Assembly (NCBI GenBank): GCA_963714055.1
Contig: OY970227.1
Coordinates: 499,079 to 563,078, forward strand
From: an uncultured Acidimicrobiia bacterium
GTDB lineage: Bacteria > Actinomycetota > Acidimicrobiia > Spongiisociales > UBA5794
DNA length: 64,000 bases
Reading direction: 5' to 3'
Shown here: in pieces, positions 2,524 through 56,915 of the stretch
Layout: each line of letters opens with the position of its first letter
Numbering within the stretch: position 1 is the first letter of the stretch
Notes under the pieces: generated by a model
Seen by the model: the letters and a program-made list of their open reading frames with translations, nothing else
Database searches by the model: none
What the model was told of the DNA's origin: nothing
Translations under genes and position numbers: made by a program

Positions 2524-2573
2524 GAACCTGAGGTCCTCACATGTCGCTCCGATAGGTGATCGCCTGATCTTCG
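2524..2573. repeat. copy 1 of a dispersed ~50-bp palindromic element (GAACCTGAGGTCCTCA...CGCTCCGATAGGTGATCGCCTGA)
   Basis: Near-identical copies at 27575-27630, 56746-56795 and 56848-56915. This copy lies directly upstream of the imelysin start. Confidence 0.7.
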
Positions 2574-2605
2574 GCTGGACCAGGCCAACCATCGCCGGCG
2601 AGCAG

Positions 2606-3096
2606 TCACCCGCCGCCATCGGCGAACAGGCGAAAGCCGACGTTGGGGGTGGGCCGGGCGGGGTCGGCGGGGAGCGTGCGCTCGGTGCGCACCCCCCAAG
2701 CCGAGTCGAGCCAGCTGCCGCCATGGAGCAGGCGCCAATCACCGTCGATCACGTCGGCGCACCACTCCCACACGTTCCCTGCCTGGTCGAGCGTCCCGAA
2801 CGGGCCGGCTCCGTCCGGCCAGGCGTCCACCGGGGTGGTCGTCCCGAACCCCGCCTCGAGTGAGTTGCACCGGCCGGGAGCGAACTCGTCTCCCCATGGC
2901 CACCGCAGCCGCTGGGGACCGGCGGCGGCGAATCGCCATCGCTCCGACGTGGGCAGGCCGAGGTCGATCCCTGTCCTCTCCCCCAGCCAGCGGCAGTAGG
3001 CGACGGCTTCGTGCCAGGTGACGTCGACCACCGGGTGCCGGGCGAACACCTCCGGTACCCGCGCCCCGTGAACCTGGCGTACTCCGTTCGCGTCAC
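2606..3096 (-). pseudogene. FGE-sulfatase (formylglycine-generating enzyme) domain remnant, N-terminally truncated and frameshifted (~3045)
   Basis: One frame gives VTRTEYARFTGRGY. The next gives PEVFARHPVVDVTWHEAVAYCRWLG...GNVWEWCAD...HGGSW...GFR, all FGE motifs. Only ~58 bp remain upstream before the next gene, so the N-terminal half is missing. Confidence 0.55.
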
Positions 3097-3154
3097 CGGG
3101 GCCCGGCCGATCCGGCAGGGCGGCTCGGTGCCGACGACGACGAGGTCGGGCGGG

Positions 3155-4177
3155 TCAGGCGGTGACGAGCCCCAGCTCCTGCTTCTTCGCCTCGACGTCG
3201 ATACCGTGCAGGCGAGCGAGGTTCTCGCCGAGGATCTTCCGCTTCGCCTGCAGCGTCAACGGCGGGTAGCCGTAGTCGTCGGCGAGGTCCTGGGGCAGCT
3301 CGAAGTCCATGAACGCCTGCAGCGCCCACTGCGGGTGCCAGATCGGTGACTCCCCGCCGTAGAGGATCTTGTCCTCGCCGCACCACCACAACATCTTGGC
3401 CAGCGTCTCGGCGAACACCCTCGGCTGACGTGAGATGAAGTTGACCGTGGCGGCGATCGAGGCGAACAGGTTGGGGAAGCGGACGATCTGCCACAGCACC
3501 TCGTCCAACCACGGCAACCCGACGTGGAAGATCACGAAGTTGATGTCGGGGAAGTTGGCGGCGGCGCCGTCCATGTCGAAGGTGCGGGTGTGCTCGATCG
3601 GCTGCGGGCCCAACGGCACCCCCTTGTGCACCCCGATCAGGTTGACGCCCAGCTCCTGGGCCTTCTCAAAGACCGGGAAGGCGACCCGTGGGTCGTCCAT
3701 CCGCCACGGGAACGGCTGCCCGTTGTCGTAGCGGACGTTGTAGAACTTGAACGCCTTGGCGCCGAACTCCTTGACCTGGACCTCCATCAGCTCGAGCGCC
3801 TTCTTGCCCTCCAGCGGGTTCACCGATCCCCAGAACACGGCGCGGTCGGGATGGCGGGCGGCCATGTCGGCGCACTTCTGCCAGTCGGACAGCCCGTCGT
3901 GGAACAGGTCCGTCAACGGGAGCGGCTGGGCCACGATCATGTCGGTGTCCGAGCCCTCGATCACCATGTCGTAGATCTCGTCGACCGACCACTCCCGCAG
4001 GAAGTCGTCGGCGCCGAGCACCGTCTCGCCCTCCTTGGTGAGGAGCTGGTGGAAGGCGTACAGGTGGTAGATGAACAGTTCCCCGGGGGGGCCGAAGGCG
4101 TTCTTCAGGTCGAAGTTGAAAATGTGGCAGACGCAGTCGAAGACGAACGCCTCGTTGCCGTCCTTGTCCTTGATCAT
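3155..4177 (-). CDS. amidohydrolase-2 family metal-dependent hydrolase
   Basis: Start MIKDKDGNEAF... at an internal ATG with a GGAG RBS; 340 aa. The DxHxH-like motif FDCVCHIF and the TIM-barrel amidohydrolase C-terminus are present. Confidence 0.7.
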   Translation of the reverse strand: MIKDKDGNEAFVFDCVCHIFNFDLKNAFGPPGELFIYHLYAFHQLLTKEGETVLGADDFLREWSVDEIYDMVIEGSDTDMIVAQPLPLTDLFHDGLSDWQKCADMAARHPDRAVFWGSVNPLEGKKALELMEVQVKEFGAKAFKFYNVRYDNGQPFPWRMDDPRVAFPVFEKAQELGVNLIGVHKGVPLGPQPIEHTRTFDMDGAAANFPDINFVIFHVGLPWLDEVLWQIVRFPNLFASIAATVNFISRQPRVFAETLAKMLWWCGEDKILYGGESPIWHPQWALQAFMDFELPQDLADDYGYPPLTLQAKRKILGENLARLHGIDVEAKKQELGLVTA

Positions 4178-4190
4178 CTCGGGTCTCCGA

Positions 4191-4553
4191 TCATCGGCGC
4201 ACCTCCATGCGCAGCCGCTCTTCCCGGTACGGGAGGAGGGGGGTGAGATCCATCTCCAGCTTGGCGCGGGCATCGTCGCTGAGCCGGTCCATCGTCCACA
4301 CCGGGTCGAACACGACCGACACCGCCACGTCTTCGACACCGTCGATGGTCGATACCTCGTCGGTGAGCATCCGGTCGAAGCCCGCTACCGACGGGCACCA
4401 CCCGGTGGTGAGCACCATGTCGATCTCGACCCGACGACCGGCGATGCGGACGTCGTCGATGAGACCCATGTCGACCACCGAGATCTCCCGCTGGCGACAA
4501 CACGGGTCGTAGCAGCGGCCGAGCGCATCGAGGACCGCCTGTCGACTGACCAA
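4191..4553 (-). CDS. DUF59 / MIP18-SufT-like Fe-S cluster assembly protein
   Basis: 120 aa with VVDMGLIDDVRI...VEIDMVLTTGWCP, typical of PF01883. Confidence 0.65.
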   Translation of the reverse strand: MVSRQAVLDALGRCYDPCCRQREISVVDMGLIDDVRIAGRRVEIDMVLTTGWCPSVAGFDRMLTDEVSTIDGVEDVAVSVVFDPVWTMDRLSDDARAKLEMDLTPLLPYREERLRMEVRR

Positions 4554-4675
4554 GGCACCTCCCTCCTCGCCGGCCCCAACCTACCGTCCGGATCCACCGG
4601 CGTGCAGGGAGACCGAGCCCACTTCGCAGCTGCCGGCCCGGTACCCTCTGGCCCGGTCGCCGACCCGGAGGATGC

Positions 4676-5206
4676 ATGTCGAAGTTCACCGATGCGCTCA
4701 ACGAACAGCTCGCCAACGAGTTCGCCGCCAGCCAGCAGTACATCGCCATCGCCGTCTACTACGACGGCGAGACGCTTCCCCAGCTCGCCTCCCACTTCTA
4801 CCGGCAGGCGGTGGAGGAGCGCAACCACGCCATGATCATCACCCAGTACCTCCTCGACGCCCAGAAGCCGGTGACCATCCCTTCGGTGGCCGCACCCCGG
4901 ACCGAGTTCGCCGATCTCCTCGAGCCGGTGAGGATGGCGCTCGAGCAGGAGCAGGACGTCACCCGGCAGATCGAGGAGCTGGCCCAGCTCGCCCGGGCCG
5001 AGGGCGACCTGGTCGGTGAGCAGTTCCTCGCCTGGTTCCTCAAGGAGCAGCTCGAGGAGATGGCGTCGATGGCCGACCTGCTCACCACGGTCGAGCGCGC
5101 CCTCGACTCCAGCATCCTGCTCGCCGAGGACTACCTGGCACGCGAGGGAATGGGCGACGGGGGCCGCAGCAAGGGCAGCCCGCCGGCCGCCGGCGGCCTG
5201 CTGTAG
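4676..5206 (+). CDS. ferritin (non-haem bacterial ferritin)
   Basis: 176 aa. The ferroxidase-site pattern LNEQLANEFAASQQY...EERNHA...EQEQ matches FtnA-type ferritins. Confidence 0.85.
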   Translation: MSKFTDALNEQLANEFAASQQYIAIAVYYDGETLPQLASHFYRQAVEERNHAMIITQYLLDAQKPVTIPSVAAPRTEFADLLEPVRMALEQEQDVTRQIEELAQLARAEGDLVGEQFLAWFLKEQLEEMASMADLLTTVERALDSSILLAEDYLAREGMGDGGRSKGSPPAAGGLL

Positions 5207-5298
5207 GAGCCCGATCTCCCGGAACCTCCGGGGCTCAAAGCTATGCTCCCGCTCTCCATGCCAGGTGAGCCTTGGCGCTCGGTCGGTGAGGGGCTCTG

Positions 5299-5892
5299 GT
5301 GACTCGAGGCAAGATCGTCGGGACGGTCATCGCCGCCACCCTTGCGGTGGTGGCCACGTCGGCGGTCGTCGCCTGGGCCGTGACGACGTATTGGGCTCCC
5401 GACTCGGAAGCGGACGAGTCGAGCTCGTCGACCGGCCCACCCACCGCCGCCGACGCGTTGTCACGGGGCACCGGCGAGCCCACCATCCTCTCGGCGGCAG
5501 CCATCGTCTCGGTGGCCGCGGAGAATGGGCCGCTGTACTGGGCGGGACCGATGGAGGACGTCCGGTACGAGGTGACGGTGACTGCCGACGGGAGCGCCTT
5601 CATCCGCTACATCCCCCTGGATGCGGACGCCGGGGCGGAGGACCAGTACCTGACCGTCGCCACCTACCGCTTCGTCGACGGGTATGGGGAGCTCCAGGTG
5701 GTCGGTGCCGAACCCGGTTCCACCATGACCGAGACGCAGAACGGTGCGATCATCGTGACCAACACCGCGTCGCCGAACAGCGCGTTCTTCTCGTTCCCCG
5801 GTGCCGCTTTCCAGGTCGAGGTCTTCTCCCCCGTCGCCGGTGAGGCCCTCGAACTGACCGAGACCGGGGCCATACGGCTGGTGGGGAGCTGA
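5299..5892 (+). CDS. hypothetical membrane-anchored/secreted protein
   Basis: GTG start and an N-terminal TM/signal segment ([23 protein letters not shown]). No recognised domain. Immediately upstream of the collagen-like gene. Confidence 0.45.
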
Positions 5893-5900
5893 CGTCGCCG

Positions 5901-7247
5901 ATGGGACCATCCCACCCGCCACACGCCGCACGGATACCGCATCTGTTGGGCGCGCTCGTGTTGACGGTGGCCATGCTCGGTGCCGCCCCGGCAGTGGCTG
6001 CCGACGGGCCGGGGGCACCCTGGGAGGAGTGGGCCCCTACAGGTGTGTCGGGACCGTTGGTCGGGCCGGGCGGGCGTATCGTCGGCCAGCGCGGACCGGA
6101 CGGGGCACCTGGCGAGGCAGGCCTGGCCGGCGAGGCGGGCGAGCCCGGGCCTGCCGGTCCGCCGGGCGCCACCGGCGCCGCCGGTGCGACCGGGCCCGAG
6201 GGCGAGCAGGGCCAGACCGGTGCGCAAGGCGACCCGGGCGAGATCGGGCCGCAGGGCCCGGTCGGACCCGTCGGCCCCATGGGACTTCAAGGTGAACAGG
6301 GCATCCAGGGCGACCCGGGTCCTATCGGTCCCATCGGGCCCCAAGGCCCGCAGGGTGAGCAGGGAATCCAGGGAGAGCAGGGCATCCAAGGCGACCCGGG
6401 TCCTATCGGTCCCATCGGGCCCCAAGGCCCGCAGGGTGAGCAGGGAATCCAGGGAGAGCAGGGCCCACAAGGCGAACAAGGCGAACAGGGACCCCAGGGC
6501 GAAGTCGGTCCAATCGGGCCCCAAGGCCCACAGGGTGACCAGGGAATCCAGGGACCCCAGGGAGAGCAAGGCCCACAGGGAGAGCAAGGCCCACAGGGCG
6601 AACAGGGAGTCCAGGGCGAAATCGGACCCATCGGGCCGCAAGGCCCTCAAGGCCAACAGGGAATCCAAGGCGATGTCGGGCCCATCGGGCCCATCGGGCC
6701 ACAAGGCGACCAAGGACCCGTCGGGCCCATCGGGCCAACCGGACCCCAAGGCGACCAAGGAGCCCAAGGCATTGCTGGACTGCCGGGGCCCATCGGGCCA
6801 CAGGGACCGCAGGGCGATACCGGCGCTGAAGGACCGCAAGGCCCACCGGGGCCGGCCGGTACCACCGGCGCCGAGGGGCCGCCGGGACCTCAGGGGCCGG
6901 CAGGTCCCGCGGGACCGGCCGGCCCGGCAGGACCTGCTGGACCGGCTGGCCCGATCGGCCCCGCAGGCCCGGCGGGACCACCCGGGACGTTCTCGGTGGT
7001 GGTCACGACCAACAGCCTGTCGGCCACTCCGGGCGCCGGCTTCCAGCTGACGGTCACCGCCACATGCACGACCGGTGTGGTGATCGCGGGTGGTGCCGCC
7101 ATCGGCGGGTCCCCGACCCAGGGACAGCAGGTGGCCCTCAACCAGTCGTTCCCGCAAGGAAACACCTGGGTAGCTCGGGCGCGGCAGGGCGGTAGCGGCA
7201 ACACAGCCTGGAACTTGACCTCCTACGCCGTCTGCCGGGTGCCCTGA
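5901..7247 (+). CDS. collagen-like triple-helix repeat protein with signal peptide and non-collagenous C-terminal domain
   Basis: The signal peptide is followed by ~290 aa of uninterrupted Gly-X-Y repeats ([21 protein letters not shown]...), then a ~90-aa Thr/Gly-rich globular tail. This is the BclA/Scl-like architecture. Confidence 0.85.
6300..6461. repeat. 2 x 81-bp perfect tandem duplication inside the collagen-like gene
   Basis: ggcatccagggcgacccgggtcctatcggtcccatcgggccccaaggcccgcagggtgagcagggaatccagggagagcag occurs twice in tandem (1 mismatch). It encodes a repeated 27-aa GXY block. Confidence 0.8.
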
Positions 7248-7279
7248 GCCATGCCGCCGTGTTGCCCCCTTCGGACACG

Positions 7280-7882
7280 ATGACCGATACGCCGCCGGAC
7301 CCGAAAGCGATCCTGCACCGGTACCTGCGGGTCCAGCGCGACCAGCTGGTCGCCAAGCTCGACGGCCTCGGGGAACGCGACATCCGCCGGCCGATGACGC
7401 CGACCGGCACCAACCTGCTGGGACTGGTCAAGCACGTCGCCAGCGTCCAGATCGGGTACTTCGGCGAGGTGTTCGATCGACCGCATGGGCTCGCGCTGCC
7501 CTGGTTCGACGACGACGCCGAGGTCAACGCCGACATGTGGGCGACCGCCGACGAGACCCGCGAGGAGATCCTCGAGCTCCACCGGATCTCCGCTCGGCAC
7601 AGCGACGCCACCATCGAGGCGCTCGACCTCGACTCCCCCGGGCTGGTGCCCTGGTGGGGGCCCGACCGTGAGCACGTGACCCTGCACCAGATCCTCGTGC
7701 ACGTCAGCGTCGAGACCGCCCGCCACGCCGGCCACGCCGACATCATCCGGGAGATGATCGACGGCTTTGCGGGGAACAAGGACGGCAACCTCCCCGAGAT
7801 GACCGCCGCCGAGTGGGCCACGTACCGGGAGCGACTGGCGCGGGCCGCCGAGGAGGCTGCGGCCCGGGACTCCGATCTCTGA
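7280..7882 (+). CDS. DUF664 (DinB/mycothiol maleylpyruvate isomerase N-terminal-like) protein
   Basis: GTNLLGLVKHVASVQ...WILVHVSVETARHAGHADIIRE matches the DUF664 four-helix-bundle signature. Confidence 0.65.
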   Translation: MTDTPPDPKAILHRYLRVQRDQLVAKLDGLGERDIRRPMTPTGTNLLGLVKHVASVQIGYFGEVFDRPHGLALPWFDDDAEVNADMWATADETREEILELHRISARHSDATIEALDLDSPGLVPWWGPDREHVTLHQILVHVSVETARHAGHADIIREMIDGFAGNKDGNLPEMTAAEWATYRERLARAAEEAAARDSDL

Positions 7883-9650: not shown

Positions 9651-9651
9651 T

Positions 9652-9723
9652 GGGCGTTGACGGGCTCGAACCGCCGACCTCTTCCTTGTAAGGGAAGCGC
9701 TCTTCCAGCTGAGCTAAACGCCC
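9652..9723 (-). tRNA. tRNA-Val (anticodon TAC)
   Basis: Reverse complement GGGCGTTTAGCTCAGCTGGAAGAGCGCTTCCCTTACAAGGAAGAGGTCGGCGGTTCGAGCCCGTCAACGCCC folds as a cloverleaf. It has a 7-bp acceptor stem, GCTC/GAGC D-stem, anticodon loop CTTACAA and T-loop TTCGAGC. CCA is not encoded. Confidence 0.85.
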
Positions 9724-21966: not shown

Positions 21967-22988
21967 TGCGGGCGCTGGTCAAGGCCAAGCCCGAGCCGGG
22001 GATCTGGATGGAGGAGGTCCCCGAACCGGAGATCGGGCCGAACGACGTGCTGATCGCGGTGCGCAAGGCCTCGATCTGCGGCACCGACACCCACATCGTC
22101 GCCTGGGACGAGTGGGCGCAGCGCACCATCCCGACGCCGATGGTCATCGGCCACGAGTTCATGGGGGCGGTGGCGGCGGTCGGGTCCGAGGTCACCGGCC
22201 TCGACATCGGGCAGCGGGTGTCCGCCGAAGGCCACATCGTGTGCGGGCGCTGCCGCAACTGCCAGGCGGGGCGACGCCACCTCTGCCACGGCACCGTCGG
22301 CATCGGGGTCAACCGGGAGGGCGCCTTCGCCGAGTACGTCGCCGTTCCCGGCGACAACGTGCAACCGGTCCCGGACGATGTCACCGACGACGTCGCCGCC
22401 ATCCTCGACCCGCTCGGCAACGCCACCCACACCGCGCTCAGCGCCGACCTGGTGGGCGAGGACGTGCTGATCACCGGCGCCGGGCCCATCGGGGTGATGG
22501 CGGCGGCGATCGCCCGCCATGTGGGTGCCCGCTACGTGGTGGTCACCGACATCAACCGCTACCGGCTGGCGATCGCCTCGACCGTCGGGGTGGACCGGGC
22601 CGTCGACGTGACTTCGACGAGCCTGGTCGAGGTGATGGCCGACCTGGGGATGCTGGAGGGCTTCGATGTTGGCATGGAGATGTCGGGCGTGTCCTCGGCG
22701 CTCCACGACATGATCTCGACGATGAACAACGGCGGCCAGGTCGCCCTGCTCGGGATCCCATCCGCCAATGCCCCGATCGACTGGAACGAGATCATCTTCA
22801 AGGGATTGACGTTGCGCGGGATCTACGGGCGACGCATGTTCGAGACCTGGTACAAGACCCTGGCGATGCTCCAGACCGGGCTCGACGTGACCGCGGTGAT
22901 AACCCACCACTACCCCTTCGAGGACTACGCGGCGGCGTTCGACATGGTGCGGAGCGGTGAGTGCGGCAAGGTGATCCTCGAGTGGTGA
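21966..22988 (+). CDS. tdh: L-threonine 3-dehydrogenase (Zn-dependent MDR)
   Basis: CGTDTH, GHEFMG, GAGPIGV and overall Tdh similarity; 1-nt overlap with the kbl stop. Confidence 0.9.
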
Positions 22989-23440: not shown

Positions 23441-23511
23441 CGATCTCTCCCCTCCCCTGAGGGGACGGAACACCGGCGCCGGGGACGCCCGGCCGGACGA
23501 GAGGGGTTCTG

Positions 23512-43214: not shown

Positions 43215-44481
43215 CTACGCGGTGACCGATTCCGATCGATCCAGCCCCACCGAGACCTGACGGTCCGGCGGCAGATCAGACCGGGTAGCGGGTTGCGGCC
43301 CGCTATCCGGTCGACCATACCGAGGGCGCCGATTCGACCCCGCCCAGGCGATCGGCGCCCTCCCCGCGCCCGGACCTCGGCGGAGCAACGCGAAAGAGGC
43401 CGCCACGTGGGGGAATGTCGCAGTGGGCGACGGCGTGTTGGCCCAAGCACTAGCCGGAGCCGAAGGCGTCACCGAACCGGTCGTCGCTCTCGGGTTGACT
43501 GTGGATCCCGTCGGTGTGCTGGGACCACAAGTCGTCGCCGGTGATGGTGAGCCCCGAGCCTGACCCGTAGATGACGTTGACGGAACCGGCGTTGGTGTGG
43601 CCGACCACGTCCCCTGGGCGCAGTCGGATAGGTGCAGCGTGGCGACGTTGTTGGAGATGTGGTTGTCAGGTTGTGCTTGGGAGGCACAGCGGAAGCACAA
43701 GTCACCCGCAGACGACTAACGAACAACGGAAGGCGTTGTGCCGCAAGGGTCTTACGCCCGATCGATCTGGGCGTCGATGGTCGGGTCGGCGAGCGGAGCG
43801 AACACGTTGTAGTAGGTCATCGCGTAGATCGGCACATCCGGCGCAGCAGCGTGCAGCTCAGCCAAGATCACCGCCAAATGAGCGGCCATCGCTGCTGTTC
43901 GGCGTCGCATCCCGAAGGCTCGAACACGCAGAACACTGGTTGCCCTTCGGCGTCGATGTGCTGCAGGTCGTTGGCCCCGATGTCGATGGTCACCAGGGCG
44001 ATCTTGCCGGGGTGTTTTTCGAGGAACTTGACCGCTGGGCGTCGATCCCATTGTCGCCGTCCAACGGTGCCCGATCGCCAGGTCGGGGTACCCGTCGCCA
44101 TCGAAGTCGGCGGCGGCCCGGCTCGACCGAACTCGCTGAATCCGGGCTCAGGCGTACCCCGGACCCCGTCGCTTGCCTGGGACCACAAGTCGTCACCAGT
44201 GGCGGTGAGACCGGTTGCAGACCCATAGATGACGTTCACTGCGCCGACGTCCTGGTAGCCGCCGACGTCCTCGCCCGGTGCGCCGACCGCCAGGTCGGTG
44301 AACCCGTCACCGTTGAAGTCGGCGAAGGCTTCGACACTCGACCCGGGATCGCCTGGGCGTACGCCCCCGGCGCCACACCAGCGACGGACGCCGCCACGAT
44401 CAACACGACTGTTGCCAACCGGACGAACCTTGTACGAGCCAACGCACTCTGGCGGGATCGAGGCTGGAGCACATTCTCCAT
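43215..44481 (-). pseudogene. mosaic of gene remnants: FG-GAP repeat fragments (two), SGNH/GDSL hydrolase fragment, LuxR-HTH C-terminal fragment, secreted-protein signal peptide; >=5 frame changes
   Basis: Signal peptide MENVLQPRS...VAGVAPGAYAQA at 44481. FG-GAP units appear in shifting frames (FADFNGDGFTDLAVGAPGED...VNVIYGSATGLTATGDDLWSQ, DFDGDGYPDLAIG, NVIYGSGSGLTITGDDLWSQ). An SGNH block III (GKIALVTIDIGANDL) and a C-terminus (VPIYAMTYYNVFAPLADP) are present. A LuxR HTH fragment (NHISNNVATLHLSD) lies at ~43640. Confidence 0.55.
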
Positions 44482-44587
44482 GCAGGTCACGGGTTGTCGA
44501 CCTCCACCAGGGTGTACCCCAGCGGGCCGTCGGCGTCGGAGTGCCTGACGACTCCGATGTTCAACCCCTGTTCCGCGCCGGCCCAGC

Positions 44588-47300
44588 TCAGCTCGACGGT
44601 GCCGGTTTCGCCGGTCTGCGCCGAGTCGGGTGCGCTGTCGATGGTGAGGTTGCCTCCCGACGTCGCCGGGACGATCCAGGTGGACAGGTCGTAGGCGGCT
44701 TCGCCGTCGATGCGTGTCCCACCCGTGGACGTACACGGTCCACACTCCAGGCACCGGATCGAAGATGGTCACTTCCTCGTCGGTGCCGGCGTTGAAGCTG
44801 GCGCCCCGGAAGACTCCGGCGGGGTCGACGCACGTACACGTCGAGGTCGGTCCCGGGATCGGCGGCTTCGGGTGGGATGGCGAGGTGGAACAACGCCGTC
44901 TCGGCCGCAAGGTCGAACTCATGGATGGTGCTGTACCCGTCGTCGGGGTCGAAGCCTTGGTCAGGGTCCTGCACGACGGTGTCGGAGATGACCGTTGCCG
45001 TCCCCAGGCCGTACGCGGCGGCGGTGTATTCGCCGGTGTACCCGAAACGCACCTCGAAGGATGCGCTGCCGTCGGTGCCCGAGCCGGCGACCTCGGTCGG
45101 GGCGTCGAACAGGAGGGTGTTGACGGCGATCGGGCTGTACACCTCGTAGCGGCCGGCGATCCAGGTCAACGACCCGGTGCTCCACTCGCCGGGGTTGCCG
45201 GTCCCGTCGTTGGTGACGGTCACCTCGTAGGTGACCGAGTCACCCGGGTCGACCGTGAACGAGCTCGGTGCCACATCGACGTCGAATCCGGCCGGGGCGT
45301 CGATCGAGACCCGGTAGGTGGCCCGCCGCCCGAGGTTGGTGACGGTACGCGCCACGGTCTCGGTGTCGACGAGCTCGGCGATGCCGATCGACGGATAGTT
45401 GAGGTTGCTCGGATCGGTGGGGTAACCCAGCGTCTCGAGCTCGGCGCAGGTGGCCGCCGGGTCGGCGAACACTTCGGGGCCTTCGGTGCACAGGAACCCG
45501 AGGTAGTCGTTGAACCCGGCGTCGTACACCAGCCCGGGCTGGAACATCGAACCCGGGATCGAAGGCATACCGGGGTCGACGTGCCCCGACCCGGTGGCGA
45601 ACGGTCCGGCCGGGGTGACCCGGTCGTTGTCGACCACGTCGTGGCGCGCCGTGGTCATCACCGCGGAACGGGCCGCCGCCGGGCTCCAGTCGGGGTGCCG
45701 TTGCTTGAGCAGGGCGTACACCCCGGCGATGTGCGGCGTCGACATCGAAGTGCCCGGCGATCGCCTGGAACATCTCGCCGGCCCCGGCATAGGGAGAGTG
45801 AGCCGCCAGGATCTGGATGCCCGGTGCGGTGATGTCCGGCTTGATGATGTCGGGTGCTTCGAGATTCGGGCCGCGAGACGAGAACCTGGTGATCGACGGT
45901 GCCGAAGGCCACGACGTGGTGGTGTTCTGCACCACCAGTCGCGCCGTCGGGTCCGCGGCAGTCGCGATGTACTCCTTGATGGCGAGTCCCGGCGTGTGGT
46001 CGACGTGCACCCCAGGCACCGAGTGGCTGTCGGTGAACAGGTTGCCGTCGTCGGTCGTGTCATAGATGATGATCCCGACCCCCCCGGCCTCGAGCACCGC
46101 CTGGCTCCACTCGCATCGACAGCCGATCCCGCGGCGGCACAGCACGATCGCCCCCCCGACCACGTCCGGATCGAGCGGACCCGCTGTGCAGTCTTCGCTG
46201 CCGGCGTCAGCCGAGTCGACGAGTGGGGAGGTTGCCAACCCCCTGGGTGAGCGAGGCGCCCAGGTAGGTCTCCCCGTTGCCGAGGACGATCCGACCAGGG
46301 AAGAACCGGCGCTGGGTGCTCGCCGCCACCGTGGTGAGCCACGGCATCGTTCCGCCGACGGTGCCAGGCCAGTCTGCCTTCGTTGCCTGGCGAAGCGGCA
46401 ATGAACACGCCGGCGTCGGCGGCGAACAGGAAGGCGATGCTCTCGACGCCGGTCAGGTTGCCGGAACCGATCGAGTAGTTGATGACGTCGACACCGTCGC
46501 CAACCGCGGTGTCGATGGCCACCGCCAGGTCGGAACTGAAGGACATACCGAAGTCCCCGCCGGCCGTCTTGTAGGCGATGATGTGCGCTCGGGGGGCGAT
46601 GCCGCTGACCGTGCCCAGGTCACGGCCCAAGACCTCCGCGGGGACGCTTCGGTTGCCGGCCGCCGTGCTCGCCGTGTGCGAGCCGTGGCCGTCGTGATCG
46701 CGAGCCGAATCGAACTCGACATCCTCGATCCCGATGACGGCCTCATAGGTCGCCATGACCTGACGAGCGCCCAGCAGCTTGTCGTTGCACTCGAACGCGA
46801 CGTCGGCCGGGTTGTGAGCCGTGTTGCCGAACTCGCACGGGATGTCCGGGTTGACCCCGGCGGGGTAGGTGTAGGAGCCGTCGTCGGCGAAGCTCGGATG
46901 CTCGGGCCAGATCCCTGAGTCGATGACGCCCACCACGACACCGCGACCGTCGATGCCGCGACCCCACGCCTCGCCTCGACCGTCGAGGCCGAGAAGTCGG
47001 GGCTGGAGTCGGTCGTCAGGTAGCGCTCGACATCGGGCACCACCCGCGCCACTCCGGGCTGGGCAGCCAGGGCCACCGCCTCGTCGTGCGACGCCACGAC
47101 GGCGAACCCGTTGACCACATTGGTCAGATCCGAGACCCTGGCGCCCTCCGCCACTCCCGGCGTCGTCATCACCTGGCGATGGCTGGCGCGGATCCGTCCC
47201 GGTCGGCACGGGCCCATTGCCGTCCGCAGGCCTTCTTGCGCGGACGCTGGAGGTTCATCGGTCCCTCCACGATCAGGAGACGGTGAATTCGTGGCGCATG
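44588..47300 (-). pseudogene. subtilisin-like serine protease (S8) with I9 propeptide, PA domain and C-terminal beta domain; >=4 frameshifts
   Basis: Asp region GVVVGVIDSGIWPEHPSF, His region HGSHTAST, PA insert and Ser region GTSMSTPHIAGVYALLKQRHPDW. These segments and the I9 propeptide fall in at least four different frames. Confidence 0.65.
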
Positions 47301-48110
47301 CCGAGCACCATGTGTGGGGTGCCGTCGGCGTTGGGCATGAAGCAGACCAGTGCGTAGTTGCCGGGTTCGACGTCGAAGGTGACCGCTTCCTCGTCACCCC
47401 CGGGAGCGGCGAGGTTGGTCGCCCACTCCCTGTCGACGGTGCCCTCTTCGCCGTCGGCCTGTATCGCCTCGTCGAGCGTCACGCCCGCGGCGAGCTTGAC
47501 GACGACCATCTCGTGGGTCTCGTCGCCGTCGTTGGTGAGCACGAACGAGGTGCGGCCGGTGGCGACGTCACCGATGTGGAAGGCGTAGTCGGTGGCGCTC
47601 ACGTCGACGCGGACGGCGTCCTGCTCGATCTCGCGGGTCGAGCCCTCGGGCAGCGCGGCCTCCTCGGAGTGGGGGATCCCGCAGGTCTCCTCTTCGAAGG
47701 CGTCGATTTCGGCGATGGCGGCTTCGATGTCGTCGTCGGCGAGGACCTTGAAGGACTCGACGAGATCGCCTCCGCTGGTGATCAGCGGCTTCGGTGACCT
47801 CGTTCACCGCGTCGGCGATCGGCTCGGGGGCGAGCTGTTGGTAGCGCTCCAGTTGCTCGACGCTCGGGAACCCCTCCAGCTCGAACAGCTCGGTCACCAG
47901 CGCACACAGCTCGCCGCTCGCTTCCGCTGCACCACCCGTCGTCGACGCGGGCGTGGCGACCGTTGTCCCGGCGGCAGTCTCGGCTGTCGCGCCATCGGGG
48001 GCCGTGGTCACCGGTGCCCCCGCGGCCGCCGACTCGGTGTCGTCGCCCCCGCAGCCGGCGAGCGCCACCACGAGCGCCGCAGCGACCGCAATCGATAGTC
48101 TCCTGTGCAT
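47273..48110 (-). CDS. lipoprotein with C-terminal cupredoxin (type-1 copper) domain; apparent frameshift (~47800)
   Basis: Lipobox LVVALAGCGG. The C-terminal domain carries a Cys-His-Met copper site (YALVCFMPNADGTPHMVLGM). The linker lies in the adjacent frame. Confidence 0.55.
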
Positions 48111-48124
48111 CTCCGTGTCCTTTC

Positions 48125-48230
48125 GGCCGTGGTAACTCGACCTGTCCGGAGCTTGCCCCACGCCTCTTCCCGCTGTCACGGGGTGGGGCTCTCGTCTGCG
48201 TCGGGAAGCGACCCGGGATTCAGCCCGGCC
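48125..48230 (-). promoter_or_regulatory. conserved ~80-nt nested-palindrome 5' leader element, copy A (upstream of the cupredoxin lipoprotein gene)
   Basis: ~88% identical over ~75 nt to 52100-52200. The RNA sense reads CUUCCCGA.GCAGACG...GCCCCACCCCGUGACAGCGGGAAGAGGCGUGGGGCAAGCUCCGGACAGGUCGAG. It contains a 7-bp stem CUUCCCG/CGGGAAG and GCCCCAC/GUGGGGC, which could pair as a pseudoknot. It ends ~15-25 nt before the RBS. Confidence 0.45.
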
Positions 48231-48908
48231 TCAGGGTTGGCCGGGGCGTTGACCCAATCCGGCCTGGCGGGCGGCGACGATGGCGTGGGCTCGGTCGGAC
48301 AGGTGCAGCTTGGCGAAGATGTTGGAGATGTGGTTGCTCACCGTCTTGCCCGAGATGTAGAGACGGGAGGCGATGGCGGCGTTGTCGTGCCCGGTGGCGA
48401 TGAGGTCGAGGACCTCGCGTTCGCGGTCGGTGAGCTCGGGGAAAGGGCTCACCGACATCCCCTTGCCGTCGGCGTGCTGGAAGAAGACGGTGAGCCGGCG
48501 GGCGATGGCCGGCCCGAACAGCGCCTCTCCGGCGGCCACGGCCCGGATGGTGCGCAACACCTCGGCGGTGTCGGCGCCCTTGAGGATGTAGCCGTGGGCG
48601 CCGGCGCACATGGCGGCGAACAGGGAGTCGTCGTCCTCGAGCATGGTGAGCATCACGACCTCGACGTCAGGGTGGTCGGCGCGGACCCGGCGGGTGGCCT
48701 CGATGCCGTTCATGTCCGTCATCTGGATGTCCATCAGGACCACGTCGGGCGCCGTCTCCGCGATCCGGGCCAGTGCCTCGGCCCCGGTCCCGGCCTCGCC
48801 CACCACCTCGGTGTCATCGGCGGCGGTCAGCAACGCGGTCAGTCCTTCGCGAAACAGCGTGTGATCGTCGACCACCAGCACGCGCAGCGGACGGGTCCGC
48901 TCAGCCAT
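48231..48908 (-). CDS. LuxR/NarL-family response regulator
   Basis: Start MAERTRPLRVLVVDDH. REC plus LuxR HTH (LTDREREVLDLIATGHDNAAIASRLYISGKTVSNHISNIFAKL). Confidence 0.85.
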   Translation of the reverse strand: MAERTRPLRVLVVDDHTLFREGLTALLTAADDTEVVGEAGTGAEALARIAETAPDVVLMDIQMTDMNGIEATRRVRADHPDVEVVMLTMLEDDDSLFAAMCAGAHGYILKGADTAEVLRTIRAVAAGEALFGPAIARRLTVFFQHADGKGMSVSPFPELTDREREVLDLIATGHDNAAIASRLYISGKTVSNHISNIFAKLHLSDRAHAIVAARQAGLGQRPGQP

Positions 48909-51106
48909 GCGGCACCTCGACCGCACTCGGGACCGGGCGGTCCGGTGGCGCCGGCTCCAGGCCCGTAGCACTCTCGACCGCTGCCCGACCGGGAAGGGTC
49001 GCCATGGGGAGGGTGGCGGAGACTTCGGTGCCGGCGCCGTCCAGGCGGGATACCCGGAGGGTTCCACCAAGCTCCTCGGCTCGTTCCCGCATCGATGTCA
49101 TGCCGACACCCGGCTGGGTGACGGCGCGGACACCGACACCGTCGTCGACGATCCGAATGAGCAATGCGCCATCGGCCAACTCCAGCGAGATCCTGCAGAT
49201 CGACGCACCGGCGTGGCGCGCCACGTTGGTGACGGCCTCGCGGGCGATGCGGTAGGCGGCTACCTCCACGGCGGCGGGGAGATCGCCCAGCGGGTCCGGA
49301 TGAGTGGTCACCTCCACTCGCAGGTCGTTCGAGCGGTCGAGCTGCCCGCCGTGCGCCGCCAGGGCTCCCACCAGGCCGAGCTCGTCCAGGGCGGGTGGTC
49401 GCAGCTCGTACACCAACCGGCGGATGTCTGCCACCAGCTCCTGGTTCTGCCGCTTGAGCGACGTCACCAGCTGGGCGACGTCAGGTCGATTGTCGGCGAG
49501 CAGGGCGAGCACGGCGTCGAGCCGGAAGGTCTGGCTGGCCAGTGACGGGCCGAGACCGTCGTGCAGGTCGCGGCGTAGTCGCCGCCGTTCCTCCTCGCGG
49601 GCCAGCACGAGCTGTTCGCGGGATCGCTGCAGCGCCTGGGTGAGCCGCATCGCATGGGCCAGGCCGCCGGCCTGGTGGGCCACGTCGTCGAGGAGGCGGC
49701 GATCGTCGGCGTGGAGGCCCTCGTGGGCGGATCGTGGGGCCACCACCAATCGGCCGACCAGTTCCCCTTGGTGACGTAGCTCGATCGTCTCCACGTTGTC
49801 ACCGAGATGGCCTACGAAGGCCCGGGTCTCCCAGGTCCCGTCTTGCTCCAGCTCGAACGCCACCCCGGGCAGCTTGAGCGCCTCGGCGACGGTCTGGACC
49901 AGGCTGTGGAGCGTGGCGTCCGGTTCGCCGGACTGCGCCAGCAGGCGACCCAGCTCCGACAGCACCGCATAGGGGTCGTCGCGCCGACCGAACATCACCC
50001 GGTTCACCACCCTCTGCACCCGGTTGCGCACCGGGTTGAACGCCACCGCCACGATGGCGGCGGCCAGCAGCGACAGGCCCAGGTTCCCGCCGGTGGGCAC
50101 CAGGGCGCCGACACCCACCACCACCGCGACGTAGGCCGCCGCCACCAGGGCGGTCATGGTCCCGTAGACGACGGTGCGGTTGATCACCAGGTCGACGTCG
50201 TAGAGCCGGTAGCGCAGCACGCCGAGGCCCAGAGCGATCACCAGGAAGAGACCGGAGGCAGACGTGAGGGCATCGAGGGGGGCGGTCAACCCGAGGTCGA
50301 CGCCCTCCCCCTCCACCAGGACGGTGTCGACCAGTACCAGGGCCTCGAGAAAGGCCACCAGGCCGAAGGCGTAGAGCACCCACTTGAGACGCTGGCGAAG
50401 ATCGGTGCCGGAGGTGCGCCACCGCGTGATCAAGCTACCGACCCCGACCACCACCGACGCCATCATCACCAGCAACCAGACGGTGTTGACGACTTCCTCA
50501 GGCACCGGCAGGATCCCGGTCGGGTTGGACGGTGGCGAAGCCACCTCCAGGAACCGGTTGGTCAAGGGCCGCTCGGCTCAGCATGAAGGCGGTGATGAGG
50601 ACCACCCACGCCCAAGCCACCACCGGTACCGCCCGGCGCCACCGGCCCACAGAATGCCCGTCGGGGAACAGAGCCGGGAGCAACAACAGGGCGAATACGA
50701 AGGTGATCATCCACAGGTCCTGCACCCACTCGGCCACACGACCGAACGGAAGACCCGGAGCCACGTACCAGGCGTACTCGGCGTACATGCCGGCCAGCTC
50801 GATGACGCTGATCAGCACGCCGGCCGCCAGCATCAACCACCCGTAACGCTGCGGACGGCCTCGCAGCACCACGACGCCACCCAGCATGGTCAAGAAGAGG
50901 AGGGTGAGCGAGGGGACGCGGTCGCTGGGGAAGAACGCGGGACCGACACCGGGCACGGCGGCGGCGCGAAGTCCCGACATCAAGGCCCATGCGCCGATCG
51001 CGCACCCCGCCGCCACCGCTGACGCCGCGGCCACGATGAGCCAGTGCCAACGTCGCAAGGCCGGTGATGGCCCCGATAGTGGGGACGCGGCCGCCATCAC
51101 CGTCAC
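48901..51106 (-). CDS. multi-TM sensor histidine kinase (HisKA_3/HATPase_c, GAF-like region) with apparent frameshift (~50530)
   Basis: H-box LRRDLHDGLGPSLAS and the ATPase motifs IVDDGVGV...GVGMTSMRERA are present. An additional N-terminal multi-TM module (50498-51106) lies in the adjacent frame. Confidence 0.7.
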
Positions 51107-51130
51107 CTCCTCCGCGACGCTCCACGAACC

Positions 51131-52087
51131 CTACGCAGCGCCGGCTGCGGGCGGCGGTAGCAATCGGTCATGCCACCGGCTCGACGTGACCAGCTGCCAT
51201 GAGGGGGGACCCGGCTGGAGTTTCGCGCCGGGACCGACCGACGGTGGCCACGGCGAAGGCCGCGCCCCAGAGGATCGCCGCCGCCGCCCAGAAGGTCGAC
51301 GCCGCCGACGCCACGTCGGGGTACACCAGGGAGTGCAGTCCGTACTCGATGGATCCCGAGCGCGGCGATCCAGGCGGGCAGACGCCACCCGGGATGGTCG
51401 CTCGACCCGAGCAGCCCGCACCAAAGGACGACCACTGCCAGCAGGGCTGCGGTGGCCCAGTGCTCCATCCCGGCGTGGGGGTCGCCGGCGGCGTTGCGCC
51501 ATTGCAGCAACGCGTGGTCGACGGCGAACACCAGCCAGGGAACCGCCGCTAAGCCCACCAGAGCACCCATCGTGACGATCCGTCCTGGGGCACCGGACGA
51601 GGTCCTGCGCCCGGGGGTGGAGCAGCGCCAGGAGCAGCACCGGCACCAGCAGCGTGACCTCCTCCACCAGCCACTCACCCAGGGTCCCGCTCAATCCATA
51701 GACGACGGCACCCGCCACGACGATGCCGACCGCCTGCAGCATCGGCGCCACCCGTCGCTCCGGCTTGCGCAGCTGCACCACGACGCCCAGGACAAGTGCC
51801 CAGGCGATGATGCCGGCGATGTTCATGTGGCCGCGGTGGATCTCGTCGGCGGCGGGCAGGTCGTCGATGAGCGACATCAACGTTTCCCAGGGCAGCCACA
51901 TGAACACCACTTCCGTGACGGCGAAGATCATGAAGATCGACACCAGCAGGGAGGTCAGCACCGCCAGCACGCGGAAGGCGATCCGCCGCGCCCGAGAGCC
52001 ACCCTCTTCCGGGACCTCCCCCGCCTCGATGGGGGTGCGGCTCGCCGAAGCTCCCCCGAGCGCCTCTACGTCCCTGGTGTTGGTCAT
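51131..52087 (-). CDS. hypothetical polytopic membrane protein (first gene of the LuxR two-component operon), frame-disrupted near its 3' half
   Basis: Start MTNTRDVEAL with a GGAGGAA RBS, preceded directly by leader copy B. TM segments appear in two frames (FRVLAVLTSLLVSIFMIFAV..., ...LVGLAAVPWLVFAV...). Confidence 0.45.
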   Translation of the reverse strand: MTNTRDVEALGGASASRTPIEAGEVPEEGGSRARRIAFRVLAVLTSLLVSIFMIFAVTEVVFMWLPWETLMSLIDDLPAADEIHRGHMNIAGIIAWALVLGVVVQLRKPERRVAPMLQAVGIVVAGAVVYGLSGTLGEWLVEEVTLLVPVLLLALLHPRAQDLVRCPRTDRHDGCSGGLSGGSLAGVRRRPRVAAMAQRRRRPPRRDGALGHRSPAGSGRPLVRAARVERPSRVASARLDRRARDPSSTDCTPWCTPTWRRRRRPSGRRRRSSGARPSPWPPSVGPGAKLQPGPPSWQLVTSSRWHDRLLPPPAAGAA

Positions 52088-52099
52088 AGCCGTTCCTCC

Positions 52100-52200
52100 G
52101 GATCTCGACCTGGCCGGAGCTTGCCCCACCCCTCTTCCCGTTGTCACGGGGCAGGGCCCCCGTCTGCCTCGGGAAGAGACCAGGAAGAGCCGGACTCCGG
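52100..52200 (-). promoter_or_regulatory. conserved nested-palindrome 5' leader element, copy B
   Basis: See copy A. The same CUUCCCG...CGGGAAG / GCCC..CCCCGUGACA / GUGGGGCAAGCUCCGG..CAGGUCGAG architecture ends ~12 nt before the RBS of the 52087 gene. Confidence 0.45.
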
Positions 52201-52248
52201 TGACGCTTCGGCGAATCCAGGCTGTGAATCCAGGGAGAGGTCGTCGCG

Positions 52249-54889: not shown

Positions 54890-54903
54890 GAACAGGTGAC
54901 CGC

Positions 54904-56553
54904 TCAGCCGGGGACCGCCTTGGCGGAGATGGCGGCGGTGTCGACACCGGTGGGCAGCGTCCCGTAGAGGTGCCCACCGCCACCGGCGACCCGGGTGGCG
55001 ATGAAGGCCTCGGCCACCACCGGATCGGCGTGGCGGACCAGCAGCGATGCCGCCAGCACGGCCGCCATCGAGCCGGCCAGCCGGCGGGCGTCCCCCTCGA
55101 CCCCGGCGCCGCCTCGCATCACCCTGGCGAGGTCGTCGATGGCGCCATCGAGCGCGGAATCCGCCCCCCTGGTGACCTCGACCTCGGACATCAGCGCCGC
55201 GACGGTCTCCGGCCAAGTCTGCTGCGCCCTCAGCACGTCGAGGGCGATGACGTTCCCCGAGCCCTCCCAGATGGCATTGAGCGGCGACTCGCGCAAGAGG
55301 CGGGGCATGATCGACTCCTCGACGTAGCCGTTGCCGCCGAGGCACTCCATCGCCTCGTGCACCACTTCGGTGCACCGCTTGGTCACCCAGTACTTGGCCA
55401 CCGGGGTGACGATCCGCCGCAGCGCCGCCTCGTGCTCGTCCTGTCCGGCGCGGTCGAAGGTGGCCGCCGTCCTGGCCATCAACGCCTCGGCGGCCTCGAC
55501 CTCCACCTCGAGGTCGGCGACCACATTGGCCATCAGCGGCTTGTCGATGAGCACCGAGCCGAAGGCGCGCCGGTGGGCCACGTGGTGGGCGGCCTGGGCG
55601 ACCGCCTGCCGCATCAACGCCGCCGAGCCGGTGACGCAGTCGAGCCTGGTTACGTTGACCATCTCGAGGATGGTGGCAACGCCCCTCCCCTCCTCCCCCA
55701 CCATGCGGGCCCATGCCCCGTCGAGCTCGATCTCGGCCGAGGCGTTCGACCGGTTGCCCAGCTTGTCCTTCAGCCGCAAGATGTGCAGGGTGTTGCGCTC
55801 CCCGTCGGGGGTCCACCGGGGAACCAGGAAACACGACAGCCCCGCCGGTGCCCTGGCCAGCATGAGGAAGGCGTCGTTCATCGGCGCCGAGGTGAACCAC
55901 TTGTGCCCGGTGAGGAGGTACCCGGCGCCGGGGCCACCGCCGTCGACCGGAACCGCCGCAGTGGTGTTGGACCGGACGTCGGAGCCGCCCTGCTTCTCGG
56001 TCATCCCCATCCCGACCAGCACCCCGGCCTTCTTCTCCGCAGGCAGGGAAGCAGGGTCGTAGGTGCGGGAGAGGAGACGAGGCTCCCACTCGGCGGCGAC
56101 GTCGGGTTGGAGGCGGAGCGTCGGCACCGCAGCGGTGGTCATCGAGATCGGGCACCAGTGGCCGGCTTCCACCTGTGAGGCCACGTAGGTGAGCGCCGCC
56201 CGTTCCACGAATCCATGTGGGCTCGGTCCCGACCGTGCTTCCCAGGGCATCGAGTGGAGCCCTCCCGAAACGGCGAGGTCGAGCAGCCGGTGCCACGCCG
56301 GGTGGAACTCCACCTCGTCGATCCGGTGCCCGTACCGGTCGTGGGTGTGGAGCAGCGGCGGATTGCGGTTCGCCAGGAACCCCAGCTCGATCACATCGGC
56401 GGAGCCCATGAGGCGACCGTGCTCGACCAGGCGGGCGTGGTCGGCCCCGGGTGCGAACTGCTCGACCAGCGCAGGCAGCAGCGGGTCGGTGGCGTAGAGG
56501 TTGTAGTCGACCAGCGGCGGCGGCTGGTTCTCGACGGTGTGGGTCGCCGGCAT
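54904..56553 (-). CDS. acyl-CoA dehydrogenase family protein (AidB-like)
   Basis: 549 aa with the ACAD middle beta-domain and a C-terminal helical domain (GGNGYVEESIMPRLLRESPLNAIWEGSGN). Confidence 0.8.
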   Translation of the reverse strand: MPATHTVENQPPPLVDYNLYATDPLLPALVEQFAPGADHARLVEHGRLMGSADVIELGFLANRNPPLLHTHDRYGHRIDEVEFHPAWHRLLDLAVSGGLHSMPWEARSGPSPHGFVERAALTYVASQVEAGHWCPISMTTAAVPTLRLQPDVAAEWEPRLLSRTYDPASLPAEKKAGVLVGMGMTEKQGGSDVRSNTTAAVPVDGGGPGAGYLLTGHKWFTSAPMNDAFLMLARAPAGLSCFLVPRWTPDGERNTLHILRLKDKLGNRSNASAEIELDGAWARMVGEEGRGVATILEMVNVTRLDCVTGSAALMRQAVAQAAHHVAHRRAFGSVLIDKPLMANVVADLEVEVEAAEALMARTAATFDRAGQDEHEAALRRIVTPVAKYWVTKRCTEVVHEAMECLGGNGYVEESIMPRLLRESPLNAIWEGSGNVIALDVLRAQQTWPETVAALMSEVEVTRGADSALDGAIDDLARVMRGGAGVEGDARRLAGSMAAVLAASLLVRHADPVVAEAFIATRVAGGGGHLYGTLPTGVDTAAISAKAVPG

Positions 56554-56745
56554 GTCCCGAGCCTACGACGCCGTGCCGGACGCCGGACCGGTTGCGGAGC
56601 CGTGCAAGGCACGCCAGCTACGCCGCCCGACGCACCGCTCTACCCGGGTCGGCGCAGCGTCGAGAGGTGCCTGGGGTCACCACGGGCCGCTGACTGTCGT
56701 AACCACGGTCACCACCGTCGGGACGGCGATCGACTGAATTCCCCG

Positions 56746-56915
56746 AACCTGAGGCCCTGGCATATCGCACCGATAGGTAATTGCATCACGTACGGGGACG
56801 ACCGCGGTCGGCCGCGCACTCGAGACAATCGCGCACCGCTCCGGTGTCTGAGGTCCTCAGGTTCAACATCAGGCGATCACCTATCGCTCCGAAGGGTCAG
56901 GACCTCAGGTTCGCC
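56746..56915. repeat. copies 3 and 4 of the ~50-bp palindromic dispersed element; copy 4 is flanked by terminal inverted repeats
   Basis: Copy 3 (56746-56795) is gaacctgaggccctggcatatcgcaccgataggtaattgca. Copy 4 (56848-56915) is ctgaggtcctcaggttc...tcaggcgatcacctatcgctccga...tcaggacctcaggttc. Both lie in the divergent promoter region. Confidence 0.7.

Follow-up and report, generated by a model that had tools for sequence, protein, structure and literature searches.

Several kinds of short intergenic palindrome are known from bacterial genomes. The ERIC elements of Enterobacteria (enterobacterial repetitive intergenic consensus, also called intergenic repeat units, IRU) and the Correia elements of Neisseria (also called Neisseria miniature insertion sequences, NEMIS) are imperfect palindromes of ~100-150 bp, present in tens to hundreds of copies. 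They are co-transcribed with their neighbours, and their long RNA hairpins affect mRNA stability or processing; Correia elements carry 26-bp terminal inverted repeats and TA target duplications. Repetitive extragenic palindromic (REP) sequences in E. coli often lie close behind stop codons and have a 5' GTAG-type tetranucleotide. Integron attC sites, including the Vibrio cholerae repeats, are imperfect palindromes of 57-141 bp behind open reading frames (ORFs), with conserved ends (R''/R' consensus RYYYAAC...GTTRRRY) and a variable centre; their strand polarity is set by unpaired bases of the folded single strand, and they form cassette arrays next to intI. In Actinobacteria, terminators that lack a U-tract are known from Streptomyces and as the 'TRIT' motif of M. 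tuberculosis. The REPs of Pseudomonas and Enterobacteria, and the doublets of them called REPINs, are mobilised by Y1 transposases (REP-associated tyrosine transposases, RAYTs) (PMC3337134, PMC3116915, PMC5581495), and in the REPINs of P. fluorescens the two REPs carry the centre motif in true inversion, AA versus TT (PMC3337134). Here we describe a family of ~50-nt palindromic units found in a 64-kb stretch of DNA from an uncultured Acidimicrobiia bacterium (contig OY970227.1, positions 499,079 to 563,078; the whole stretch is referred to as the window). The elements are probably lineage-specific extragenic palindromes of the REP/REPIN kind in the Acidimicrobiia, which would have spread non-autonomously and would act as hairpins in 3' untranslated regions (UTRs), not as an operator.

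An earlier note on the window had reported four copies of a palindromic element resembling a REP or a miniature inverted-repeat transposable element (MITE). All four exist and lie essentially where that note placed them. The left-arm motif GAACCTGAGGTCCTCA, at up to three mismatches, matched the window seven times against 0.49 expected (0 of 100 shuffles reached seven), and the right-arm motif CGATAGGTGATCGCCTGA three times against 0.09 expected, a count that the shuffles never reached. An nhmmer profile of the four copies regained all of them in the 64 kb (E 1e-14 to 1e-15) and added a degenerate fifth unit, c5, abutting c4 (E 0.005); no units beyond c1-c5 were returned by the profile. The units are as follows.

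c1, 2523-2574, + strand: solo unit, running from outer arm to inner arm, with the centre CTC on the + strand (nhmmer E 2e-15).
c2, 27575-27626, - strand: solo unit, the most perfect palindrome (nhmmer E 1.3e-15).
c3, 56745-56794, + strand: left unit of a composite, with the centre CAC, a variant of CTC (nhmmer E 3.8e-14).
c5, 56820-56864, - strand (read 56864 to 56820): degenerate internal unit, head-to-tail with c4.
c4, 56865-56914, - strand: right unit of the composite, with the centre GAG on the - strand (nhmmer E 1.5e-15).
Composite c3-c5-c4, 56745-56912, no strand assigned: 168 bp in a divergent spacer, made of three units.

Both palindromes reported in the second copy were present: the 10-3-10 core TCACCTATCG-ctc-CGATAGGTGA at 27589-27611, and the terminal 13-bp 6-1-6 palindrome GAACCTCAGGTTC, i.e. 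GAACCTcAGGTTC, at 27612-27624. The inverted arm said to flank the fourth copy is there in sequence, at 56846-56864, but it is the outer end of the head-to-tail unit c5 and not an inverted flank; it only looks inverted beside c4 because the arm, TGAGGtCCTCA, is itself palindromic. The core of c5 is altered to CACCG-GAG-CGGTG, with self-complementarity kept. Units c3, c5 and c4 thus count as one composite and not as independent sites, and the same three-unit layout of 167-168 bp was also found in two of the other loci compared (L001 and L021; such loci are numbered with the prefix L). The possibility that only four copies exist fell away, as many more were found.

A scan of 185,579 species genomes, with a pattern spanning both arms, matched only two uncultured Acidimicrobiia metagenome-assembled genomes (MAGs; Microflora Danica), apart from two chance matches. 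At least nine and at least eight sites were found in the two MAGs, with 18 and 16 units. One locus, L019, from MAG MFD05567.bin.2.61, is 95% identical to positions 21080-29073 of the window, and the window organism is therefore a close relative of that MAG. No member of the family was found in viral and plasmid collections, the one viral match being a coding repeat, and a phage or plasmid origin was dismissed.

In this family (family 1; a sister family 2 is described below), each unit of ~50 nt consists of an outer arm, (c)GAACCTGAGGTYC, a core hairpin with a 10-bp stem and a 3-nt centre, e.g. TCACCTATCG-GAG-CGATAGGTGA, and an inner arm, ..GCCTGAAGTTCG or ..CTCTCGAGTTCG, which pairs partly with the outer arm. 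The standard form is a ~121-bp doublet comprising a + unit, a non-conserved spacer of ~23 nt and a - (inverted) unit, with the sharp ends 5'-(c)GAACCTGAGG...CCTCAGGTTC(g)-3'. Fifteen doublets measured 119-128 bp, and three longer ones 168-170 bp. The predicted minimum free energy fold of the doublet is one long hairpin (-50 to -61 kcal/mol, z -3.0 to -5.7). As RNA, solo c2 has a predicted folding energy of -25 to -27 kcal/mol whichever strand is folded (z about -4.5), and solo c1 was no more stable than shuffled sequence. The earlier note had proposed looking for target-site duplications around the copies. No direct-repeat duplication was seen in 15 family 1 elements and 40 family 2 elements (the latter among the matches listed, as are the other family 2 counts below); the bases flanking the elements, C(C) at the left end and G(G) at the right, are in inverted and not direct arrangement.

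The arrangement of the cores differs from that of the arms. When the two units of a family 1 doublet are read from the outer end inward, one has the centre GAG and the other CTC, so both centres are identical on one strand. This was the case in 18 of 18 family 1 doublets, allowing the variants CAC, AAG and TGAG (P about 4e-6 if the centres were free). The asymmetric 16-nt cores of family 2 were direct in 21 doublets, inverted in three and undecidable in five. At the level of sequence, both families combine inverted arms with direct cores. In the predicted long hairpin, direct cores leave a symmetric 3x3 internal loop; the predicted two-hairpin fold gives each strand two loops of identical sequence. 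The direct cores suggest either a strand-specific reader or the descent of each family's doublets from one asymmetric ancestor. Separately, in MAG MFD05567.bin.2.61, two solo units that are truly inverted (L013, 7166-7213 and 7931-7979) bracket the mismatch endonuclease gene nucS. The doublet hairpin would hold G:G and A:A mismatches. The bracketing may be a coincidence, with ~0.1 such adjacent pairs expected per genome.

Placement relative to genes was counted at ~16 independent sites from the two MAGs, metagenome contigs and the window. At most of these the gap between the element and a stop codon was -8 to 17 nt. The clpB stop codon in L008 and L015 is the TGA inside GAACCTGAGG, and in L007 a DUF2007 gene and malQ each take their stop from one end of the element. 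Five spacers were clearly convergent and three probably so, ~7 were tandem and one, that of c3-c5-c4, was divergent; convergent spacers make up 14% of the spacers and 7% of the spacer bp in the same DNA (P 0.06-0.0007 by counting mode). All 41 aligned units lay in spacers or overlapped merely the last 8 nt of an ORF. In the apparent exception, L002, an ORF spans the element, and the ortholog in L003 ends before it; copies inside genes, which the earlier note had raised as a possibility, were not seen in any intact gene. The statement that the element is restricted to promoter regions had to be given up, since most copies stand directly behind stops, 5-8 of the ~16 sites are convergent, and convergent spacers hold no promoter. 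Within the window, all copies do lie upstream of gene starts, as that note said (by 68, 50, 36 and 191 nt), and c1 and c2 also follow the stop codons of the preceding genes, by 34 and 42 nt.

The neighbouring genes included clpB, malQ, two PNPOx genes, a cupredoxin, an FGGY kinase, a Zn-peptidase, fpg, smc and nucS, together with a sigma factor, a PGA_cap gene, a Zn-dependent alcohol dehydrogenase (Zn-ADH), an ABC permease, corA, DUF5996, imelysin, FGE, AidB and luciferase-like monooxygenase (LLM) genes. No common function, regulator or transposase was found among the neighbours in the window and the loci. The polarity of the unit relative to the upstream gene was 5 versus 2, which is not significant. 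Core polarity showed no relation to the GC skew of the 8-kb loci in what was an underpowered test, and replication-linked polarity, whether Ter-like or through lagging-strand insertion, was set aside as an explanation.

Orthologous sites were compared in the groups L002/L003, L006/L014/L041/L132, L008/L015, L011/L018, c2/L019, c3-c5-c4/L021/L020 and c1/L025. The two MAGs are 88-96% identical, and the element is common to both at four sites. Identity within the element was 90-95%, versus 60-83% for the adjacent non-coding 40-nt flanks; c2 and its ortholog in L019 are identical at 45 of 48 positions. L018 lacks an internal unit that L011 has gained. At the site of c3-c5-c4, L021 (AidB 87% identical) has a 167-bp composite, and the closer L020 (94%) has a single variant unit with the core GGTACCG-GAG-CGGTACC, three compensatory pairs away from CCTATCG-GAG-CGATAGG. 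In L014, L132, L006 and L041 the right-hand core has changed from ACCTATCG-GAG-CGATAGG to GCGTACCG-AAG-CGGTACGC and the left-hand core is also altered, both changes being compensatory. At the site of c1, L025 carries the unit in the divergent spacer of a ferritin and an imelysin gene; no unit is present in L023 and L024, where ~64 nt are replaced by ~5 and the conserved imelysin leader is retained. No recent transposition event was seen at the orthologous sites compared. On these comparisons, the element is old, has been passed on vertically under constraint or homogenisation, and has now and then been lost or rearranged. As read from the same alignments, doublets are shown to decay to singlets (c1, c2), to gain units (c3-c5-c4) or to vanish imprecisely.

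A metagenome scan by the two termini only, 95-125 nt apart, returned at least 120 loci. Two of these, L041 and L132, belong to family 1. The sister family 2 was found at ~40 loci, on contigs of 64-68% G+C, with the consensus GAACCTGAGGTTCCCCGTAACGCATATGCAACGAACTCTCTCGAGTTCG - spacer - mirror image. It has in common with family 1 the 13-bp terminal palindrome GAACCT(G/C)AGGTTC and a length of ~120 nt, and has a different core; the family 2 inner arm also occurs in some family 1 units. The family 2 hosts belong to the Acidimicrobiia as well, since a P-type ATPase beside the element shares 79-93% identity with proteins named as coming from that class; their protein identity to the window organism is only 40-58%. 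The family 2 elements, which were not de-duplicated, stood in 15 convergent, 19 tandem and five divergent contexts, with a gap to stops of ~10-30 nt; in this bias they match family 1. Variants with other self-complementary cores were seen in L059, L036 and L065. In some loci the right half-unit of family 2 (inner arm, core and terminal 13-mer) is repeated in tandem two to three times with a 71-nt period:

L089, 1557-1640: tandem half-units.
L102, 4965-5119: tandem half-units.
L112, 10696-10779: tandem half-units.

A further array, at L108 7043-7184, has five or six repeats of 21-23 nt, each containing CAACCTCAGGTTC. The termini scan also returned a third group (family 3; ~40 loci among the matches listed) in human-gut metagenome assemblies of 56-63% G+C, for example L038 3185-3366 and L050 3937-4064 (from the L026-L145 subset), with Firmicutes-like neighbours such as pth. 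These elements are 121-132 nt long, with the ends GAACCTGAGGTTC...GAACCTCAGGTTC matching those of families 1 and 2. Their sub-terminal blocks are conserved yet mutually unlike (CCTGCACCTCCC on the left, GGGAAATCCAAG on the right). Two internal hairpins with 3-nt loops and two flank hairpins show compensatory variation between loci, and there was no Rfam match. Family 3 may be a distinct repeat family; it was left out of the evidence as a relative, given its Firmicutes-like hosts and a common 13-mer that may be due to chance.

Of the described systems, the elements appear to resemble REPINs most, and also BIMEs (bacterial interspersed mosaic elements) and ERICs. As in REPs and REPINs, short imperfect palindromes are repeated in extragenic space, doublets surround a poorly conserved spacer and are predicted to form one long hairpin, singlets resemble decayed doublets, and clusters of higher order exist. 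Further points of likeness are vertical inheritance with copies that last long at orthologous sites, the lack of target-site duplication and the frequent placement close behind stop codons. The differences are a unit of ~50 nt instead of ~20-35 nt, the absence of a 5' GTAG-type tetranucleotide, a self-palindromic 13-bp terminus conserved across families, a host in the phylum Actinomycetota, and copies seen in tens and not hundreds, a count that is a pattern-limited lower bound. The elements differ from ERIC and Correia elements in having no duplication and no sequence similarity to them, and we know of no description of the two-core architecture with direct cores for either. With actinobacterial terminators they have in common a GC-rich hairpin behind stops, often between convergent genes and putatively usable in both directions; they differ in being long, sharply bounded homologous repeats that also stand in divergent spacers. 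Searches of a literature library by motif and keywords did not find the motif, and found no link of REPINs or RAYTs to Actinobacteria or Acidimicrobiia.

Several results weigh against placing the elements with the REPs and REPINs, or against an RNA-level role. The cores are direct here and inverted in the REPINs of P. fluorescens (PMC3337134), and membership of a RAYT-REPIN system cannot be claimed. Among the ~40 flanking proteins scanned in the 8-kb loci, there was no RAYT/Y1_Tnp or other cognate transposase. No clean insertion or excision polymorphism was found: the absence of c1 in L023 and L024 is an imprecise indel, and L146 holds decayed remnants (~35 nt at the place matching the L112 junction described below). 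We therefore infer mobility from dispersal alone. The census is biased, as the pattern was built from the window copies and units with GGTACC-type cores were missed. Covariation in the 41-unit alignment was not above that of shuffled controls, and the excess of G:T over A:C was weak (69 versus 43). The hairpin and position of an intrinsic terminator are both present; there is, however, no U-tract, and the terminator scan was empty for all units. The description of the element as MITE/REP-like and palindromic is borne out: this is a dispersed and sharply bounded palindromic repeat family.

At three places the window carries strain-specific blocks that its close relatives lack (L023-L025; L020/L021). 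One of them, of ~2 kb (~2574-4607), contains two FGE-sulfatase-like genes; compared with L025, its point of insertion coincides exactly with the inner edge of c1, and nhmmer found no unit at its other end. A two-gene block of ~2.1 kb (5203-7280) lies between the ferritin and DinB-like genes. The third, of ~8.9 kb (~43380-52235), carries a subtilase/fn3 gene, a cupredoxin and a LuxR-type two-component system; this island (~43.4-52.2 kb) yielded neither a transposase nor an integrase. In L112 (6794-7062; compare L121 and L146), a family 2 element has an SLT-domain gene on one side and, on the other, what remains (52 aa) of the C-terminus of an ABC permease. By comparison of the loci, this junction is a rearrangement breakpoint at the edge of the element.

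The earlier note had offered two explanations, a regulon operator that has spread or a small mobile element that targets promoters. An operator of a dimeric or tetrameric transcription factor, for an iron-type or other regulon, would fit the distance of every window site from a start codon (36-191 nt), the 10-3-10 core and 6-1-6 terminus, which are palindromes typical of dimer sites, and the position of c1 against the conserved upstream region of imelysin. It is nevertheless highly unlikely and already largely refuted. Many members lie between convergent genes or overlap stops, the neighbours are functionally unrelated, and no regulator gene is linked to the copies. The asymmetric conservation over ~50 nt far exceeds what an operator needs, and both half-sites change together at orthologous loci. 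Moreover, c1 points one way and c2 the other with respect to the downstream gene, and the unit is dispensable at the imelysin site, where L023 and L024 keep the imelysin upstream region without it. Related candidates were set aside as well: a LexA-type box has the consensus GAAC-N4-GTTC, and the spacing here is N5 with no SOS genes nearby; a promoter inside the unit for sigma-70 or an extracytoplasmic function (ECF) sigma factor is at odds with the inconsistent orientation and the empty promoter scan; and the unrelated gene context does not fit an iron or other regulon. The mobile alternative, a classical MITE derived by internal deletion of a DDE transposon, with terminal inverted repeats of ~48 bp and possibly a preference for promoters, would account for the sharp ends, the inverted outer arms, the uniform length (~121 bp and ~120 bp in families 1 and 2), the dispersal to many loci and the conservation of the 13-bp terminus from one family to the other, which a binding site for a transposase should show. 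We consider it improbable, given flanks that lack a direct-repeat target-site duplication and are rich in C to the left and in G to the right, the self-palindromic termini, unusual for ends of a DDE transposon, and the stability of copies at orthologous sites across 88%-identical genomes. No partner insertion sequence (IS) or transposase was found in the window or the loci, and no autonomous partner with matching ends in the fetched loci, viral contigs or plasmids. The placement favours 3' ends over promoters.

A host site acting at the DNA level is rather unlikely as an explanation, with somewhat more to be said for it. It would be either the target of an architectural or topological protein on the double-stranded or cruciform palindrome, comparable to gyrase or integration host factor (IHF) at BIMEs, or a folded single-strand recombination site, comparable to integron attC or CTX attP; in the recombination version, the elements would be hot spots for gene-block insertion. 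Consistent with such a site, two families with hosts at only 40-58% protein identity have one and the same perfect 13-bp terminal palindrome, the fixed core polarity of both families suggests a directional reader, the centre is unpaired in either predicted fold, and positive supercoils accumulate between convergent genes. The insertion of the ~2-kb block exactly at the edge of c1 and the L112 junction would be expected from the recombination version, but these two cases may be coincidence or ordinary repeat-mediated rearrangement, and the other end of the block has no unit. There is also no linked recombinase, integrase or cassette array, the copies being dispersed among housekeeping genes. 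The elements resemble attC sites as imperfect palindromes behind ORFs that have conserved ends around a variable centre. An attC site was rejected since the ends, sCGAACC...GGTTCGs, do not fit the consensus RYYYAAC/GTTRRRY, and neither arrays nor intI accompany the housekeeping neighbours, which are in conserved synteny. That the units are non-homologous, look-alike intrinsic terminators that evolved independently is hardly conceivable. Their position behind stops and between convergent genes and their strong predicted hairpins would suit terminators, but ~50 nt of common sequence, including unpaired positions and fixed asymmetries, the occurrence of copies in divergent spacers (c3-c5-c4, and c1 in the arrangement of L025) and the lack of a U-tract do not; this reading already stands contradicted by the homology of the copies.

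If the elements are extragenic palindromes of the REP/REPIN kind, the doublet would have spread as one unit, non-autonomously, through a putative trans-acting enzyme that most likely recognises a hairpin. In 3' UTRs the element would be transcribed, and its hairpin of ~-60 kcal/mol may protect or define mRNA 3' ends, or terminate transcription. It may also insulate convergent genes, as REP, ERIC and BIME sequences do. The analogies behind such an RNA-level role are REP, ERIC and BIME sequences and the actinobacterial terminators without a U-tract. A wider proposal, that this is a class-wide hairpin-doublet replicator or host element of the Acidimicrobiia, distinct from RAYT-REPIN systems, is offered tentatively and is doubtful at present. 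Under this proposal, the constant 13-bp termini, the concerted, lineage-specific cores and the direct orientation of the cores would together point to a dedicated strand-specific protein that reads both cores on the folded strand.

The window has 70% G+C; its genes were called from codon bias and named with Pfam. The genes next to the elements are the following.

Beside c1: FGE-sulfatase-like gene, stop at ~2606 (- strand), 34 nt away; imelysin gene, ATG at 2455 (- strand), 68 nt away.
Beside c2: corA, stop at 27667, 42 nt away; DUF5996 gene, ATG at 27526, 50 nt away.
Left of the composite: AidB-type acyl-CoA dehydrogenase gene, 54904-56553 (- strand), start 191 nt away.
Right of the composite: LLM gene, 56949-57800 (+ strand), start 36 nt from the outer end of c4.

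Between c1 and the imelysin ATG lies a perfect 9-bp inverted repeat, CTCCCTAAC-N7-GTTAGGGAG, at 2465-2489. It is fully conserved in L023-L025, including the relatives without the c1 unit, and the only score that the scan gave it was that of a terminator-like hairpin on the + strand. For the imelysin/DUF1111-type iron operon, this repeat is a better operator or leader-structure candidate than c1. On the - strand at 2490-2518, weak hexamers resembling -10 and -35 boxes (TTGCAC-N17-TAAGGT) were noted by eye and failed the promoter criterion of the scan. The promoter and terminator scan found no sigma-70-like promoter and no T-run hairpin inside any unit. The spacer of ~190 nt from the composite to the start of the AidB-type gene (56554-56744) has ~125-170 nt without a counterpart in L020 and L021. 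A single tRNA gene (9651-9723, - strand) was the sole Rfam match in the window; at the gathering threshold, Rfam matches in the window and eight loci were limited to a tRNA and a group II intron, both elsewhere than the elements.

Understanding of REP and REPIN repeats is most advanced for Proteobacteria, in which they are maintained by a domesticated Y1 transposase. The present finding adds a sharply defined family and a sister family in the Acidimicrobiia, an abundant and almost uncultured class of soil and water bacteria for which we found no earlier account of such repeats. The constant termini, lineage-specific cores, direct core orientation and stop-codon position are handles for finding the trans-acting factor, and the architecture allows the hairpins to be tested as 3'-end or terminator structures without a U-tract in high-GC actinobacteria. 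In annotation, such sites should not be taken for operators or for an iron regulon. The elements are also markers of the junctions at which closely related strains differ by an indel or a rearrangement. If the proposal of a class-wide element is true, it would be the first REPIN-like system described in Actinomycetota, and possibly involve a new kind of enzyme.

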